Below are positions 88 through 5,362 of a stretch of DNA of 5,417 nucleotides, one piece after another. Under the pieces are notes generated by a model. It searched no databases, was not told the origin of the DNA, and was given only the letters and a program-made list of their open reading frames with translations. The stretch comes from a virus (Duplodnaviria > Heunggongvirae > Uroviricota > Caudoviricetes). Numbering within the stretch: position 1 is the stretch's first letter; each line of letters opens with the position of its first letter. A program made the translations under genes and the position numbers. Where the stretch lies: the IMG/VR virus record IMGVR_UViG_2778261231_000005, one strand, 5' to 3'.

Positions 88-105
88 TTTTTGTGGAGTA
101 AGTTG

Positions 106-471
106 ATGCGTGATATTCAGATGGTTCTTGAGCGTTGGGGGGCATGGGCGGCGAGTGATAGTTCAGGCGTTGATTATTCACCTATAGCCGCTGGGTTTAA
201 GGGACTTCTTCCCTATACAAGCAAGAAACGCTTGGCTTGTTCGGATAGTGATGCCTTAATTATTGAAGGTTGTCTTGCTCGTCTAAAGCAAAAAAGGCCG
301 GACGAACATTCGCTTCTTGTTGCCCATTACCTATACGGTATCTCTAAAAGAAAGCTCGCCAAGGCTCGTAAAAAAGATGAGAAATTGATACGTATAGAAA
401 TACAGCTAGCCGAAGGATTTATTGATGGCTGCCTTTCCATGCTAGATCTAACATTAGATTTGGACGTTTAA
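106..471 (+). CDS. Q: Late-gene antitermination protein Q (short Q-like family, about 122 aa)
   Basis: The N-terminus MRDIQMVLERWGAWAA... and the IAAGFKGL and Cys-containing segments match my memory of short Q-like antiterminators of E. coli prophages (QuuD-like). I take ATG at 106 as the start because GGAG at 96..99 sits 6 nt upstream; the ORF track instead starts at TTG 91. Stop is TAA 469..471. Confidence 0.8.
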   Translation: MRDIQMVLERWGAWAASDSSGVDYSPIAAGFKGLLPYTSKKRLACSDSDALIIEGCLARLKQKRPDEHSLLVAHYLYGISKRKLAKARKKDEKLIRIEIQLAEGFIDGCLSMLDLTLDLDV

Positions 472-500
472 TAATACGCCCCTGCATGGGGCGTATTATT
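470..500. terminator. Perfect hairpin between convergent genes; candidate bidirectional intrinsic terminator
   Basis: The arm 470..482 (aataatacgcccc) pairs perfectly with 488..500 (ggggcgtattatt) around the 5-nt loop tgcat. The GC core cgcccc/ggggcg is followed by TATTATTT on the + strand and by TATTATTAAA on the - strand. The hairpin overlaps the stop codons of both Q (469..471) and the minus-strand NTPase (500..502). Confidence 0.45.
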
Positions 501-1831
501 TACTGGATGAATGACATTTGATTAATATATTTTATCAATAACTCTCTGGGTGTAGTACTCCAAAAATTTATGTGTTCATAATCAGTATAAACATTTGTGA
601 ATTTTTTAAGTTCTTCATCACTTTTAGGGGCAAATCGCTCATTAAGAGTAATACTGTCTTTAATTATTCCGAAGAATACAATGGATATTTCAGGGATTTG
701 CGATCTTCTCTCATAAGAATAAGGTATTTCTTTTATGTTAAGCAGGTCTGCTAAATAAGATATAGATTCAGCGGTAATTTCTTGTTTTAGTTTTTCCTTG
801 TTACCAAAGCAATGTATGAAGGCAGCTACGACAAAGATCATATTTATTAAAGGATTACTGCTTTTGTTCTCATCGTCGTTTAACAGTTGAAAAATGTTAA
901 GATTGCGTGAAAATGTTTGTGTTTCACGCAATGATAAGTTGGTTCGTTGAATTAAATCACGGATAAAGTAACCTGATAATCTATTGATTTTATTCAATAA
1001 CCTTGTTTTTTCTACAAGATAATCCCAATATATAACAGAGGCTTTACATACGTTGTGACCATTTATCAAACATGTATCTGGAAGCGTGATGGTATATTTT
1101 ATAAACTTGTCAAGATATTTTTGTGAGTTAATGCTATAACCATAAATATGATTTATAGATGCTTTTAATTGTTCTGTGTTTGTAACTAAAATAAAAAAGA
1201 CATTATTGATGTCAAAAATGTGTTTTATTGTTTCAATGACATTTGTTGAAAAACTCGGCTTACATCGGTCTAATTCATCAATTATAATTACGATTTTTTG
1301 ATTTTTTGATATACTTTCGATGCAGGATTTAAGTGAATTTATGTTTTTCTCTGAGTCCATATGGTCTTCAAGCAAATTTTCAATAGTCCCATCTATTGCT
1401 GCATTGCTTGCTTTCTTCATCGCATCTTGGAATTCTTCGGCAACTTCACTAGCCTCCTGTCGTAAAAACCAACCTGCACCAGCTTTTAGTACCGTTTTTA
1501 AACCAAAGCGAATTGCAGGAAGAGATCTCTTAATGAAGTGTTGTTTTTCTTCCTCAGGCAAAATGCTGGCAATTGCAGAGGTTATGAGAAGTAATGGAGA
1601 TTCTGCATGATCCCCTTTAAAGGCATCAATATAAACAACTTTAGATTCAGTTTCTTGCTCAATAATGAGATTTTTCAGTTTGATACTAAATTCTGTTTTC
1701 CCTGTTCCCCATGCGCCGTCTATTACCAGTGGTGAAATGTCTGCCTCTGGTTTTAGCAACTTGATGATATTTTCAGCGATGTTTCTTCGTTGGAACTCGT
1801 CACGTTCAGTGAAAGATAGTGTATCTAACAT
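500..1831 (-). CDS. KAP-family P-loop NTPase (443 aa); AT-rich cargo gene, candidate defence or abortive-infection protein
   Basis: Walker A GAWGTGKT (aa 39..46, nt 1694..1717) has the GxWGxGK[ST] form typical of KAP NTPases. Walker B IVIIIDELDR (aa 180..189, nt 1265..1294) has the hhhhDELDR form typical of the same family. Hydrophobic segments between the two motifs (LLLITSAIASILP, LPAIRFGLKTVLKAGAGWFL) fit the KAP insert. The ORF is long and uninterrupted, and its composition is clearly more AT-rich than the flanking phage genes. Confidence 0.8.
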   Translation of the reverse strand: MLDTLSFTERDEFQRRNIAENIIKLLKPEADISPLVIDGAWGTGKTEFSIKLKNLIIEQETESKVVYIDAFKGDHAESPLLLITSAIASILPEEEKQHFIKRSLPAIRFGLKTVLKAGAGWFLRQEASEVAEEFQDAMKKASNAAIDGTIENLLEDHMDSEKNINSLKSCIESISKNQKIVIIIDELDRCKPSFSTNVIETIKHIFDINNVFFILVTNTEQLKASINHIYGYSINSQKYLDKFIKYTITLPDTCLINGHNVCKASVIYWDYLVEKTRLLNKINRLSGYFIRDLIQRTNLSLRETQTFSRNLNIFQLLNDDENKSSNPLINMIFVVAAFIHCFGNKEKLKQEITAESISYLADLLNIKEIPYSYERRSQIPEISIVFFGIIKDSITLNERFAPKSDEELKKFTNVYTDYEHINFWSTTPRELLIKYINQMSFIQ

Positions 1832-1893
1832 AATATAAACCTATTAACTCCTACAGTAAAAAACGAATAATACGACTTTGGGATTAAAAATCA

Positions 1894-1922
1894 TTAACGC
1901 GGTCCGCAAAAATTCTTGTAAT
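1894..1922 (+). promoter_or_regulatory. Candidate sigma70 promoter, possibly the late promoter pR'
   Basis: -35 TTAACG (1894..1899), a 17-bp spacer, and -10 TGTAAT (1917..1922), placed about 35 bp upstream of the tR'-like terminator. Lambdoid phages place pR' and the Q-utilisation site between Q and the holin gene. This is motif matching by eye only. Confidence 0.2.
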
Positions 1923-1955
1923 CTGTTAAGAGTGGTTACTTCGCCACACAGCTTA

Positions 1956-1990
1956 AACCCGCCGTCGAGCGGGTTTTGTCGTTTTTGTTG
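1956..1990 (+). terminator. Rho-independent terminator, tR'-like (the late-operon terminator that Q overrides)
   Basis: Stem aacccgc (1956..1962) pairs with gcgggtt (1969..1975) around the loop cgtcga, followed by TTTTGTCGTTTTTGTTG. No + strand gene lies immediately upstream, so this would end a short leader RNA rather than an mRNA, as at lambda tR'. Confidence 0.55.
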
Positions 1991-2127
1991 CTGGGGATTC
2001 GTTGGGCCTGGCCTATCCCGCAGTTATCCATTGGTTCGGCTCTTTGACGTTTCCGCTTCTGATTTGCGGTACATGATGTTCCCTCATTTTGCACCTGCTG
2101 TATCAGCGAGGTGAGAGATAACTACAA

Positions 2128-2454
2128 ATGCCTCATAACCCAAATACCTGGTTGGAGTTGGTCCAGAGCTGGTGGCGTGGAGACACACCGCTGGGCGCAG
2201 TGATTATGTCGATTGTTATGGCTGGTTTACGTATTGCCTATTTTGGCGGTGGTGGGGGCTGGAAACGAAAAACACTCGAAATTCTACTCTGTGGCGCTCT
2301 GACGCTGACTTTTGCATCCGCTCTTGAGTATGTCGGATGGCCTAAATCACTTTCTGTTGCCATTGGTGGTGGTGTTGGGCTGATCGGTGTCGATGCTATT
2401 CGTGGGGCAGCAATGCGAGTAATCGGTAACAAATTTGGTAGCTCGAAGGAGTAA
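2128..2454 (+). CDS. S: Holin, lambda S-like (108 aa)
   Basis: Size and architecture resemble lambda S (107 aa): hydrophobic Gly-rich segments (GAVIMSIVMAGLRIAYFGGGGGW, LLCGALTLTFASALEYVGW, VAIGGGVGLIGV) and a charged C-terminal tail. It lies immediately upstream of the endolysin. SD-like GAGGTGAG sits at 2108..2115. The start codon is uncertain. Confidence 0.8.
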   Translation: MPHNPNTWLELVQSWWRGDTPLGAVIMSIVMAGLRIAYFGGGGGWKRKTLEILLCGALTLTFASALEYVGWPKSLSVAIGGGVGLIGVDAIRGAAMRVIGNKFGSSKE

Positions 2455-2457
2455 TTT

Positions 2458-2934
2458 ATGCAGGCACTAAATTCCCAGCGTAAAGCTTTCCTTGATATGG
2501 TGGCATGGTCAGAAGGAACGGATAACGGGCGACAACCGACACGTAACCACGGTTATGACGTTATTGTTGGTGGTGAACTGTTTACTGATTACTCCGATCA
2601 TCCTCGCAAACTTGTCACGCTAAACTCCAAACTCAAATCAACAGCCGCCGGACGTTACCAGCTTCTTTCACGTTGGTGGGATGCTTACCGTAAACAGCTT
2701 GGTTTGAAAGACTTCTCCCCCAAAAGCCAGGACGCTGTGGCATTGCAGCAGATTAAAGAACGTGGCGCTTTACCGATGATTGATCGTGGTGATATTCGTC
2801 AGGCTATCGACCGTTGCAGCAATATCTGGGCTTCGTTGCCGGGCGCTGGTTACGGTCAGTATGAACATAAAATTGGTGACCTGATTGCCAGGTTTAAAGA
2901 GGTTGGCGGGGTGGTAAATGAAGTTGAGCTATAA
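2458..2934 (+). CDS. R: Endolysin, lambda R-type lytic transglycosylase (158 aa)
   Basis: The translation is near-identical over long stretches to lambda R as I recall it (QRKAFLDM.AWSEGTDNGRQ.TRNHGYDVIVGGELFTDYSDHPRKLVTLN.KLKST.AGRYQLLSRWWDAYRKQLGLKDFSPKSQDAVALQQIKERGALPMIDRGDIRQAIDRCSNIWASLPGAGYGQ). AAGGAG at 2446..2451 sits 6 nt before the ATG. Confidence 0.95.
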   Translation: MQALNSQRKAFLDMVAWSEGTDNGRQPTRNHGYDVIVGGELFTDYSDHPRKLVTLNSKLKSTAAGRYQLLSRWWDAYRKQLGLKDFSPKSQDAVALQQIKERGALPMIDRGDIRQAIDRCSNIWASLPGAGYGQYEHKIGDLIARFKEVGGVVNEVEL

Positions 2935-3379
2935 GCTAGTTATCGCTGCTTTCTTCGTTACTATTATTGGTTCTTTCATCTGGTCAGCGAATCATTACCA
3001 CAATCAAGCCATTGAATACAAAAAGCAGCGCGACGAAAACGCTATGGCATTACATTCGGCTATGGCGACGATCTCTGATATGCAGAAGCGTCAACGTGAC
3101 GTAGCTGAACTTGACGCCAGATACACAAAGGAGCTTGCTGATGCTAACACGACTCTCGAAAGTCTCCGTACTGATGTCTCTGCTGGTCGTAAGCGCTTGC
3201 AAATCGCCGCCACCTGTGCAAAGTCAACGACCGGAGCCAGCGGCATGGGCTATGGAGAAAGTCCAAGACTTACAGCTGATGCTGAACTCAATTATTACCG
3301 CCTCCGAAGTGGGATCGACAAGATAACTGCACAGGTTAACTATTTGCAGGAGTACATCAAGACACAGTGCCAGAAATGA
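2918..3379 (+). CDS. Rz: Rz, inner-membrane spanin subunit (i-spanin, 153 aa)
   Basis: N-terminal transmembrane segment (LVIAAFFVTIIGSFIWSANHY) followed by a region closely resembling lambda Rz (QRDVAELDARYTKELADA..., AGRKRL, SPRLTADAE). Its start overlaps the end of R by 17 nt. Confidence 0.85.
   Translation: MKLSYKLVIAAFFVTIIGSFIWSANHYHNQAIEYKKQRDENAMALHSAMATISDMQKRQRDVAELDARYTKELADANTTLESLRTDVSAGRKRLQIAATCAKSTTGASGMGYGESPRLTADAELNYYRLRSGIDKITAQVNYLQEYIKTQCQK
3141..3326 (+). CDS. Rz1: Rz1, outer-membrane lipoprotein spanin subunit (o-spanin, 61 aa), embedded in the +1 frame of Rz
   Basis: ATG at 3141 is preceded by AAAGGAG (3127..3133). The product MLTRLSKVSVLMSLLVVSAC... has a lipoprotein signal with lipobox VSAC, then a Pro-rich stretch (KSPPPVQSQRPEPAAW) like lambda Rz1. 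The ORF track starts it at TTG 3111. Confidence 0.75.
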   Translation: MLTRLSKVSVLMSLLVVSACKSPPPVQSQRPEPAAWAMEKVQDLQLMLNSIITASEVGSTR

Positions 3380-3387
3380 ATCTATAG

Positions 3388-3415
3388 ATGACACTCCACG
3401 TTCGTATAAGATAAT
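3388..3415 (+). promoter_or_regulatory. Candidate sigma70 promoter for the 287-aa cargo gene
   Basis: -35 ATGACA (3388..3393), a 16-bp spacer, and -10 GATAAT (3410..3415), in the AT-rich gap between the Rz stop and the next ORF. This is motif matching by eye only. Confidence 0.25.
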
Positions 3416-3451
3416 GCTAAATTACTATTAGCTTAATCACAGGAGACGGAC

Positions 3452-4315
3452 ATGGAAAGAGGTGTGGTATTTAGTGCATGCGAATTACTTAAAACCGAGG
3501 ATGGAAAAGGCATCCGTACAGGTAAATGGATTAGTCAATTAGAAATAAACTATCTATGTCTTTATTGGGATAAACTAGTTTCACCCACTAATAATATTAT
3601 ACATACAGCATTAAATAACGAGGATGAATTAGAAAAATGTGGATTGCTAACCAGACCTGTATATAGACATCATGGTTGTTTTGATGGCCAATATATGGCT
3701 GATTTTTATGCTGAAACTCATGCCAAAACAATAGATATACTTAGGCATGCGGATTCTTCTGTCGATTGGCGCATGCATTTTTTAAGTGACCAAATAAACT
3801 TGGTGCCTGAATTATCTAGAACCTCAGAAGTGATACGTTTTGAGCTAGAAAATTTATTACCCGTTCCCACAGAAGATGTGCACCTACATGATATTCTTGA
3901 TTTCAAGGAAAGAAGAAAACCTGAATTAATCGCTTTACATGAATATCTTGATGAGCTTTACTTGGAAATAAAACGTTCTGGTGATATCAATCTTCAGAAA
4001 GCAAAAGCTCTTTCTAATCTTAAACAAGCAATAAAGGATATTGAACGCTTAAATTGTGAAGTGTGGAAAAGTCCAATAAAATTTAGCATCTCTACTTCCT
4101 TTGAGTTCGATTTTTCACAAATATTTAGTCTGGCGGGAACTGTTTTATCTATGTCAGTAGATTATCCTTATAATGTTATTGGAGGGGTAAGTAGTTTTGC
4201 TTATTTTTTGGGAGGATGCATAAAAATAAAGCCACAATTTCAACAAGTGTTATCATTAGGTAATGATAAATTAGTTTACATAAGCAAAGGAAAATCGGAG
4301 GGTATTATTTCCTGA
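3452..4315 (+). CDS. Hypothetical protein (287 aa), AT-rich cargo gene of unknown function
   Basis: Long open frame with a strong SD (AGGAG 3441..3445, 6 nt before ATG 3452). Composition is clearly more AT-rich than the flanking lysis and packaging genes. No catalytic motif recognised. The C-terminal part (about aa 224..257, nt 4121..4222) is moderately hydrophobic (IFSLAGTVLSMSV, VIGGVSSFAYFLGGCI). Confidence 0.7.
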   Translation: MERGVVFSACELLKTEDGKGIRTGKWISQLEINYLCLYWDKLVSPTNNIIHTALNNEDELEKCGLLTRPVYRHHGCFDGQYMADFYAETHAKTIDILRHADSSVDWRMHFLSDQINLVPELSRTSEVIRFELENLLPVPTEDVHLHDILDFKERRKPELIALHEYLDELYLEIKRSGDINLQKAKALSNLKQAIKDIERLNCEVWKSPIKFSISTSFEFDFSQIFSLAGTVLSMSVDYPYNVIGGVSSFAYFLGGCIKIKPQFQQVLSLGNDKLVYISKGKSEGIIS

Positions 4316-4391
4316 TTTTTGATTCTCATAATCAATGAATGTTTTTTGTGAATATACTTATTTTAACCCTATAAATAATCAAGGTAATAAA

Positions 4392-4742
4392 GTGCCTCCT
4401 CGTATCCCGAAAGCCTGCCGTGCTCGAGGTTGCCGTAATACCACCACAGACCCGTCAGGCTACTGCGAAAGCCACAAAAGCGAAGGCTGGAAGCAATACA
4501 AGCCAGGCCAGTCCCGACACCAGCGCGGTTATGGTGCGAAATGGGATGTTATCCGTGAACGTGTGCTCAAGCGTGACAAAGGCCTGTGTCAGTTGTGTTT
4601 GCGTGCCGGTGTGGTGCGCGAGGCGAAAACCGTTGACCACATCATCCCTAAAGCACATGGCGGCACTGATGCCGACAGCAATCTGCAGAGCCTGTGCTGG
4701 CCGTGTCATAAGGCGAAGACGGCCCGTGAACGGTTGAAGTAA
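4392..4742 (+). CDS. HNH endonuclease (phage packaging-associated HNH)
   Basis: HNH core VDHIIPKAHGGTDADSNLQSLCWPCHKAKT plus upstream Cys pairs (C..C.....C..H). It sits immediately upstream of the terminase small subunit, as in HK97-like packaging modules. I prefer GTG 4392 as the start (AAGG 7 nt upstream, and the composition shift occurs here); the ORF track alternative is ATG 4335, which has no SD and lies in AT-rich sequence. Confidence 0.8.
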   Translation: MPPRIPKACRARGCRNTTTDPSGYCESHKSEGWKQYKPGQSRHQRGYGAKWDVIRERVLKRDKGLCQLCLRAGVVREAKTVDHIIPKAHGGTDADSNLQSLCWPCHKAKTARERLK

Positions 4743-4867: not shown

Positions 4868-5362
4868 ATGGCTGGAACGGCGGGGCGTTCCGGGCGTCGC
4901 CCCAAGCCAACGGCGCGCAAGGCGCTGGCCGGAAACCCCGGCAAGCGAGCCCTGAACAAAGATGAACCTGTTTTTACGCCCATCAAAGGTGTTGAGCCAC
5001 CGGAGTGGTTCGCTGAAGAAGATCTCCCTCTCGCCACGATCATGTGGCAACTGACAACCAAAGAACTCTGCGGTCAGGGCTTGCTGTGCGTGACTGACCT
5101 GGCGGTACTTGAGCGGTGGTGCGTGGCCTATGAGTTCTGGCGACGTGCCGTGAAAAATATTGCCAGACAGGGCAACACCATCACCGGTGCAATGGGCGGT
5201 ATGGTCAAAAATCCGGAGCTGACCGCCAAAAAAGAACAGGAGTCCGAGATGAGCAGTACGGGGGCAATGCTCGGACTCGACCCCAGCAGCCGCCAGCGTC
5301 TGATTGGCCTGGCGGGGAAGAAGAAAGCCACTAACCCGTTTCTGAAAATCATCGAATCATGA
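4868..5362 (+). CDS. Terminase small subunit, P27 family
   Basis: The N-terminal basic region with the ALAGNPGKRALN motif is the signature I associate with P27-family small terminases. AGGAG (4855..4859) sits 8 nt before ATG 4868; the ORF track starts at GTG 4859. The stop TGA 5360..5362 overlaps the next ATG. Confidence 0.85.
   Translation: MAGTAGRSGRRPKPTARKALAGNPGKRALNKDEPVFTPIKGVEPPEWFAEEDLPLATIMWQLTTKELCGQGLLCVTDLAVLERWCVAYEFWRRAVKNIARQGNTITGAMGGMVKNPELTAKKEQESEMSSTGAMLGLDPSSRQRLIGLAGKKKATNPFLKIIES

Follow-up and report, generated by a model that had tools for sequence, protein, structure and literature searches.

How the late antiterminator Q acts on its promoter when another gene lies between the two is the question raised by a 5,417-nucleotide stretch of Caudoviricetes DNA (IMG/VR record IMGVR_UViG_2778261231_000005, hereafter the window). 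Its 5.4 kb cover the late-control and lysis region of a lambdoid Escherichia coli prophage. In lambda, as an earlier sequence-only reading of the window had noted, Q ends tens of base pairs before the late promoter pR': the stop codon is at 44509, and the -35 element TTGACT follows about 45 bp downstream. The same reading had described a hairpin and a convergent nucleoside triphosphatase (NTPase) gene behind the Q stop codon (471), and both are found, the hairpin at 470..500 and the gene at 500..1831. From a comparison of about 125 related loci, we conclude that window positions 1886..1985 are probably the cassette of late promoter and late terminator (pR'-tR') of a lambdoid prophage with a short Q of the Q21 family. 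The layout is ordinary for this phage group, and the NTPase, a PDC-S20 protein, is a new cargo in an arrangement known from DLP12, PA-2, and 434B.

Window positions 1886..1977 are homologous to the sequence that directly follows the Q stop codon in phages lacking an insert (1720a-02 and locus L001 of our set). Because of this block homology, the conservation pattern at the -10 element, and a terminator conserved in structure, pR' was placed at about 1886..1931 and tR' at 1955..1985. The block has a predicted sigma-70-type promoter directly 5' of an intrinsic terminator, with the lysis genes behind it (holin at 2128). A Q gene immediately upstream of pR' is not present in the window; it is present in 1720a-02 and, among the matches listed, in 26 relatives.

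Conservation was counted over 42 distinct upstream sequences. The predicted -10 hexamer of pR' follows a TAnnnT pattern, with T1919 in 39 of the 42 and A1920 and T1924 in all of them, and the interior positions 1921..1923 are variable. Transcription is predicted to start near A1931, and 1,447 bp separate the Q stop codon from the predicted -10 element. The A-rich tract at 1886..1891 is the right-hand edge of the insert, where the homology with insert-free phages begins; between this tract and the -10 element, the sequence varies across related loci. Downstream, the segment 1925..1954 is invariant, also at bases that the search pattern left free, and holds a small predicted hairpin, GUGGU..GCCAC, at 1932..1948. 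The pause at which Q is loaded likely falls somewhere within this segment. The candidates in the first transcribed bases are AAGAGT (1928..1933), which is the best and overlaps +1, and TACTTC (1937..1942), which is without the final T; the elemental pause consensus (G-10, Y-1, G+1) was not evident when the early transcribed segment was inspected. As a separate observation, the invariant AAGAGTGGTTACTTCGCCAC (1928..1947) and the lambda pR' sequence AACGATGGGTTAATTCGCTCG (L147:789..809), which comprises the lambda pause element and pause site, share 13 of 20 bases with one gap. The lambda Q family is unrelated to that of the window, and AAGAGTGGTTACTTCGCCAC starts 3 nt after the -10 hexamer and would therefore overlap +1.

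The predicted tR' has an 8-bp stem (1955..1976) with five GC pairs, followed by TGTCGTTTTT. It ranked first in the terminator scan and is the sole plus-strand match between 500 and the holin gene. In related loci, 36 distinct hairpin versions occupy this position, nearly all with a U-run, indicating that the structure is kept and the sequence is not; the terminator lies 25 to 45 nt downstream of the -10 signature. The predicted terminated leader RNA is about 47 to 55 nt. The sequence-only reading had placed a single intrinsic terminator before the holin gene at 1956..1990, pR' within 1880..1950, and a leader of a few tens of nucleotides between them; the first proposal was borne out with slightly shifted ends, the second is supported by the insert-free homology and by the -10 element at 1919..1924, and the third agrees with the predicted length.

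Homologues of the window Q begin with MRDIQ, which makes ATG at 106 the likely start codon and TTG at 91 an alternative. The 121-residue protein matches PF06530 with an E value of 1.8e-52 (residues 1 to 118 on model positions 1 to 118 of 118); PF06530 is the Q21 family according to PMC9388147. By this Pfam match, which settles the family membership, Q is assigned as a short member of the Q21 antiterminator family. A search of solved structures found no match at the default threshold; at E values up to 10, it gave a weak direct match to the Q21 chains 6P18/6JNX (E 0.005). Short Q proteins align with Q21 over the N-terminal ~100 residues only, and their C-terminal part has no reliable alignment. 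Identical or near-identical Q proteins are present in IMG/VR loci, and that of 1720a-02 is 73% identical to the window Q.

Four types of Q could be distinguished, each with its own palindrome upstream of the -10 element. Type A, that of the window, goes with GCGGTCCGC; type B (SfII-like, ~50% identical) with GCGTACGC; type C (DLP12, PA-2, and ev243; ~50% identity) with TTACG(WW)CGTAA, which in the DLP12 group is TTACGTACGTAA; and type D with GGAATTCC. Q subtype and palindrome type are concordant in 107 of 107 loci, and the module that begins only about 55 nt further downstream is freely combined with different Q types. Within each type, the palindrome is at least 90% conserved and its flanks are variable. 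In the window, GCGGTCCGC occurs as a single exact copy; its center is at about -28 relative to the predicted start, and 18.5 bp separate it from the -10 center downstream; the distance between the centers of palindrome and TAnnnT is constant at 18 to 18.5 bp in all six classes and in the variant GCGGGCCGC. The palindromic form of all six classes, together with the conservation of each within its type, favors a function of these elements, and we regard them as candidate Q-binding sites of their Q subfamilies. Like the Q-binding elements of lambda and phage 21, the palindrome overlaps the -35/spacer region. No tandem direct repeat of the Q21 type (TGAGCA, 8 bp apart) was found in 1880..1930. A scan of one genome per species added TGTAATTACA (Kosakonia), TTCGTTACGAA (a Pantoea metagenome-assembled genome [MAG]), and GCGGGCCGC, each with a divergent Q. 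The same block, with the same spacing and different terminator stems, was also observed in L132 (Kosakonia), L144 (Pantoea MAG), L137 (Enterobacteriaceae LSJC7), and L136 (Atlantibacter). Exact copies of the block on short MAG contigs labeled Chitinophagaceae, Bacillota, and Erysipelotrichaceae (L129, L135, and L142) most likely reflect contamination of the bins by E. coli prophage DNA.

The position of the palindrome bears on a different assignment of the promoter, which we regard as unlikely. Here, TAATCT would be a sigma-dependent pause element and the A-tract at 1908..1913 the -10 element; the palindrome would lie between -35 and -10 as in phage 21, transcription would start near 1919, and the leader would be about 60 to 65 nt. 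The spacing is compatible with such a scheme (18.5 bp from the palindrome center to TAATCT versus 19 bp from the downstream Q21 subsite to the pause element of phage 21), and A1908 is invariant. However, the A-tract was rejected as a -10 element for want of a conserved T at its last position: most variants have no T at the key position -7, column 1912 is A in 32 of 42 sequences, and column 1913 is unconserved. Moreover, no conserved -35-like element lies 17 bp upstream of the A-tract, whereas types C and D have good -35 hexamers (TTTACG/TTTACA or TTGCGG/TTGTGG) 16 to 17 bp upstream of TAnnnT, as expected if the latter is the -10 element. A further candidate, TGnTAAGAG (1924..1932) as an extended -10 element, is unlikely, as it has no T at -7.

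The DNA between Q and the cassette has the properties of a cargo module, or moron: an empty site in relatives, deviant base composition, and a terminator hairpin of its own. The cargo is absent from the same junction in 1720a-02 and, among the matches listed, in 26 further loci, and the GC content of the cargo region is 0.26 to 0.40, compared with 0.47 to 0.6 in the backbone flanks. The hairpin folds at -22.1 kcal/mol on the plus strand (z -5.4) and at -20.8 kcal/mol on the minus strand (z -6.3), and none of 200 shuffled sequences was as stable; a two-way terminator is plausible here. In cdtI and ev243, hairpins of their own stand at the equivalent position. The NTPase matches KAP_NTPase (PF07693) with an E value of 9.4e-71 and the PADLOC profile PDC-S20 with an E value of 3.7e-177 (residues 3 to 442 on profile positions 4 to 449 of 450); matches to PifA (6e-18) and QatA (7e-12) are weaker. 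By these matches, the protein is a candidate single-gene anti-phage system. Its promoter must fall within the gap 1832..1918, and the candidates on the minus strand of 1832..1897 are weak, consensus-level ones; apart from a TATTAT read from the sequence, a consensus scan for minus-strand promoters listed a different weak site at 1860..1832.

In a further alternative, late transcription would begin at the end of Q or upstream of it, by read-through of the early transcript or from a site at 448..475; it would then cross the NTPase gene in antisense, and 1886..1985 would be an internal attenuator. The promoter scan does list CTAACA-16-AATAAT at 448..475, with 9 of 12 matches. This site was rejected: promoter-like matches are at chance level (10 found versus 11.5 expected), relatives show no conservation of the site, and transcription from it would begin within the hairpin 470..500. 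In addition, 472..499 does not resemble the cassette found behind Q in phages that lack an insert. We therefore consider this alternative highly improbable and place the late promoter behind the insert.

The junction is occupied by many other cargoes. A scan of IMG/VR with 25 bases of the 1720a-02 block gave at least 120 loci, and 105 of those listed have a Q homologue upstream. In these 105, the distance from the Q stop codon to the block is 7 to 48 nt in 27 loci and 0.5 to 3.8 kb in 78, with at least 25 length classes; thus, about three-quarters of the related loci listed carry an insert at this site. At least ~30 unrelated clusters of cargo proteins are found across related loci, and many match known or candidate defense systems. 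The matches include PD-Lambda-1, PDC-S42, PDC-S33 (RelA/SpoT-like), PDC-M53A, PDC-M53B, PDC-S60, a PDC-M68A-like HNH protein, and a cytosine methyltransferase paired with an OLD/HEC-04-like ATPase; further matches are a porin, an NA37 protein, a ClpP-like protease, and DUF6731. A complete Kiwa system (KwaA, E 1.9e-83; KwaB, E 2.3e-150) stands in antisense at the junction in L007, L066, and L086. Among the matches listed, all cargo open reading frames (ORFs) of at least 70 residues are antisense to Q and the late genes except two, a PD-Lambda-1-like gene and one Trabulsiella ORF; within the listed IMG/VR set, the PD-Lambda-1 gene is the sole sense-strand cargo. No description of this hotspot was found in the literature searched.

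Both joints of the module can be approximated. The last ~10 codons of Q (430..471 in the window; L001, L002, and others) were observed to vary with cargo type (DLTLDLDV, DVKLEME, GVRLEMDDWLLKK, and others), and the left recombination joint is therefore placed inside the 3' end of Q. Behind the KAP NTPase module, at least two different late regions are found, so that the invariant block seems to be the other recombination joint. The explanation that fits best, and that we hold with good confidence, is that a cassette directly after the Q stop codon is the ancestral-type arrangement in relatives and that recombination has placed at this recurrent hotspot a 1.4-kb module made up of the putative two-way terminator, the KAP NTPase gene, and its upstream region.

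Several points weigh against this interpretation. The start, the pause, and the Q binding of this cassette are placed by prediction from sequence. The best match to a -35 element is TTAACG (1894..1899), a weak one with a spacer of 19 bp; the UP-like A-tract may compensate for it in type A. No canonical sigma-dependent pause element (TAnnnT) was found 3' of the predicted start. Each cargo type in the sample is paired with one Q type, so that the concordance of Q and palindrome could partly be linkage. PDC-S20 is a candidate defense family rather than a validated one, as PDC families are candidates by definition. Finally, the DLP12 version of the promoter is claimed to be RpoE dependent (as cited in PMC7918800).

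The last point leads to a reading in which the block is not a Q-dependent late promoter at all but either a stress sigma promoter, RpoE dependent as proposed for the DLP12 essDp, or a constitutive unit producing a small terminated regulatory RNA. The report of RpoE control of the DLP12 lysis operon (reference 28 in PMC7918800), the use of short pR' RNAs as small RNAs (for example, StxS), and the unusual invariance of the transcribed segment would agree with it. Against it stand the position of the block, immediately behind Q where there is no insert and immediately ahead of the lysis or stx late genes, and the upstream palindrome, which tracks the Q subtype. The same essD lysis operon of DLP12 is also reported to be under the control of a Q-like factor (PMC7918800, references 27 and 28 therein). 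The window had no Rfam match at E values up to 1, so the leader belongs to no described RNA family, and a small-RNA role would add to the pR' function rather than exclude it; a full-text literature search for the block sequence matched no paper. This reading appears improbable to us, and we retain the assignment as a Q-dependent pR'-tR' cassette.

Under this assignment, by analogy with phage 21, pR' would fire constitutively in the lysogen and RNA polymerase would stop at tR', leaving an RNA of about 50 nt. The NTPase gene would be transcribed in the opposite direction from a promoter of its own and end at the hairpin 470..500; its expression in the lysogen would thus not extend into the lysis genes, and the gene would stay out of the late transcript. 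The cargo would be kept apart from both because it is antisense, upstream of pR', and closed by the putative two-way terminator. Upon induction, Q made from the early transcript would diffuse to its binding element, most likely, as judged from covariation, GCGGTCCGC at 1899..1907. It would then be loaded onto polymerase pausing within the invariant early transcribed segment and carry the enzyme past tR' into S, R, and Rz and the genes beyond them. Q binds DNA and joins RNA polymerase at the promoter; because it acts as a diffusible protein, the distance between its gene and its site need not matter.

The features of the window are collected in the table. Its first 2.5 kb occurs at full length, with 98 to 99.6% identity, in 42 of 5,426 complete E. 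coli genomes, and S and R share 92 to 94% DNA identity with those of SfII. Between Rz and the HNH/terminase genes, a second low-GC island (3388..4350; GC content, 0.31 to 0.37) contains the DUF6236 gene, and a promoter-like ATGACA-16-GATAAT lies just 5' of that gene at 3388..3415. The gene had no match in a PADLOC profile search; the island may be a second cargo site.

Features of the 5,417-nt window, with positions counted from its first letter
Feature	Position	Strand	Remarks
Q antiterminator	106..471	+	PF06530; mechanical ORF 91..471 from TTG
Putative two-way intrinsic terminator hairpin	470..500	both	13-bp stem; spans the gap between the Q and NTPase stop codons
KAP-family P-loop NTPase cargo gene	500..1831	-	PF07693, PDC-S20
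Candidate cargo -10 element TATTAT	1867..1872	-	conjectural, read from the sequence
A-rich tract	1886..1891	+	about -45..-40, UP-element-like; A-rich columns across 42 distinct sequences
Palindrome GCGGTCCGC	1899..1907		9 bp; candidate Q-binding element of this Q subtype, from covariation
Predicted pR' -10 hexamer TAATCT	1919..1924	+	TAnnnT conservation
Invariant early transcribed segment	1925..1954	+	includes AAGAGT (1928..1933)
Predicted late terminator tR'	1955..1985	+	stem AAACCCGC/GCGGGUUU, then U-rich tail
Holin S	2128..2454	+	lysis cassette (profile matches for the cassette: PF05106, PF03245)
Endolysin R	2458..2934	+	lysis cassette
Rz	2918..3379	+	lysis cassette
DUF6236 gene	3452..4315	+	
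HNH endonuclease	4392..4742		
Small terminase subunit	4868..5362		

A gene between Q and its promoter is harmless, with precedent in DLP12, PA-2, and 434B, and the parts worth following up are the hotspot and the subtype-specific palindromes, the latter being the less expected result. The junction is easily scanned: at least 120 viral contigs gave at least ~30 cargo families, including Kiwa, PD-Lambda-1, and unvalidated PADLOC candidates, which makes it a source of defense genes to test. The palindromes that track Q offer candidate binding sites that can be swapped, in a branch of the Q21 family that is large and barely studied, and their classes bear on cross talk between co-resident lambdoid prophages, including Shiga toxin (Stx) phages with this Q type. 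The natural variants, in which gene and site lie 0 to 3.8 kb apart, suit the question of proximity, given that lambda Q is reported to act preferentially in cis (as cited in PMC5303824). As a tentative generalization, about which we remain rather doubtful, short Q21-family Qs might recognize a palindrome about 18 bp upstream of the -10 element, with at least six classes (GCGGTCCGC, GCGTACGC, TTACGWWCGTAA, GGAATTCC, TGTAATTACA, and TTCGTTACGAA) and a loading geometry, symmetric or otherwise, different from that of the Q21 tandem repeats and possibly lacking a separate pause element downstream; the stretch from Q to its site might be a dedicated antisense cargo hotspot for defense genes of Enterobacteriaceae lambdoid prophages.

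The sequence-only reading had called for comparison with characterized lambdoid late promoter regions, and in this comparison the layout matches the annotated cassette of phage 21. In the phage 21 record (L126), the Q stop codon is followed after 6 nt by the -35 element, the Q-binding element, the -10 element, the start at 1974, a pause element at +2, and the terminator, which ends at 2023; the terminated RNA is 50 nt. The window resembles phage 21 in having a Q in PF06530, in the order of the parts, in a predicted terminated RNA of about 50 nt, and in a candidate Q-binding element in or next to the promoter core. The short leader, which the sequence-only reading had implied to be odd, is thus shared with the type member of this Q family. 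The two differ in the Q protein (Q21 has 162 residues, about 40 more than the window Q, at ~24 to 30% identity) and in the binding site, for which the candidate in the window is a 9-bp palindrome, as against two TGAGCA direct repeats 8 bp apart for Q21. They also differ in the distance of the Q gene from the cassette, 1.4 kb here versus 6 bp, and in the pause element, since no clear one was found here.

DLP12 (qsr'), PA-2, ev243, and 434B share the architecture of Q, convergent cargo, invariant block (with one mismatch in the transcribed segment), and holin. They differ in that the cargo is a reversed porin (nmpC/lc) with a long regulatory region, the Q is of type C with TTACGTACGTAA, and the holin/endolysin is of the phage 21 type. 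The plaque-forming 434B carries about 5.5 kb of the cryptic prophage DLP12, with its Q, late promoter, and lysis genes; Q lies at 41385..41768, followed by nmpC::IS5, and the same block stands at ~44,635, about 2.9 kb from Q, with S behind it. The 1.4-kb gap, likewise implied to be unusual, is therefore surpassed in a viable phage. Among the Shigella phages, SfII, with which SfIV is grouped, shares the cassette and S/R with the window; its junction holds two antisense genes, the PDC-M53 A and B pair, and its type B Q goes with GCGTACGC. In cdtI, the same junction has two antisense genes, for DUF6731 and a membrane protein, and in the Stx phage 1720a-02, the cassette directly follows the Q stop codon without an NTPase gene. 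StxS, which is the terminated RNA from pR' in the Sakai Stx phages, is made as a primary transcript of 258 nt and then processed to 74 nt; it was rejected as a homologue of the window leader, as it comes from a different pR' type, and the study of Stx pR' regions by Zhang et al. (2018) is without an element-level map for the type found here.

The P2/P4 defense hotspots (Rousset et al. 2022) and the lambdoid morons offer the same general picture of a fixed site, flanked by conserved phage genes, that receives unrelated cargoes of low GC content with transcription of their own, including many anti-phage systems. Unlike these, the site in the window splits a regulator gene from its target promoter, and its cargo is nearly always antisense to both flanks.

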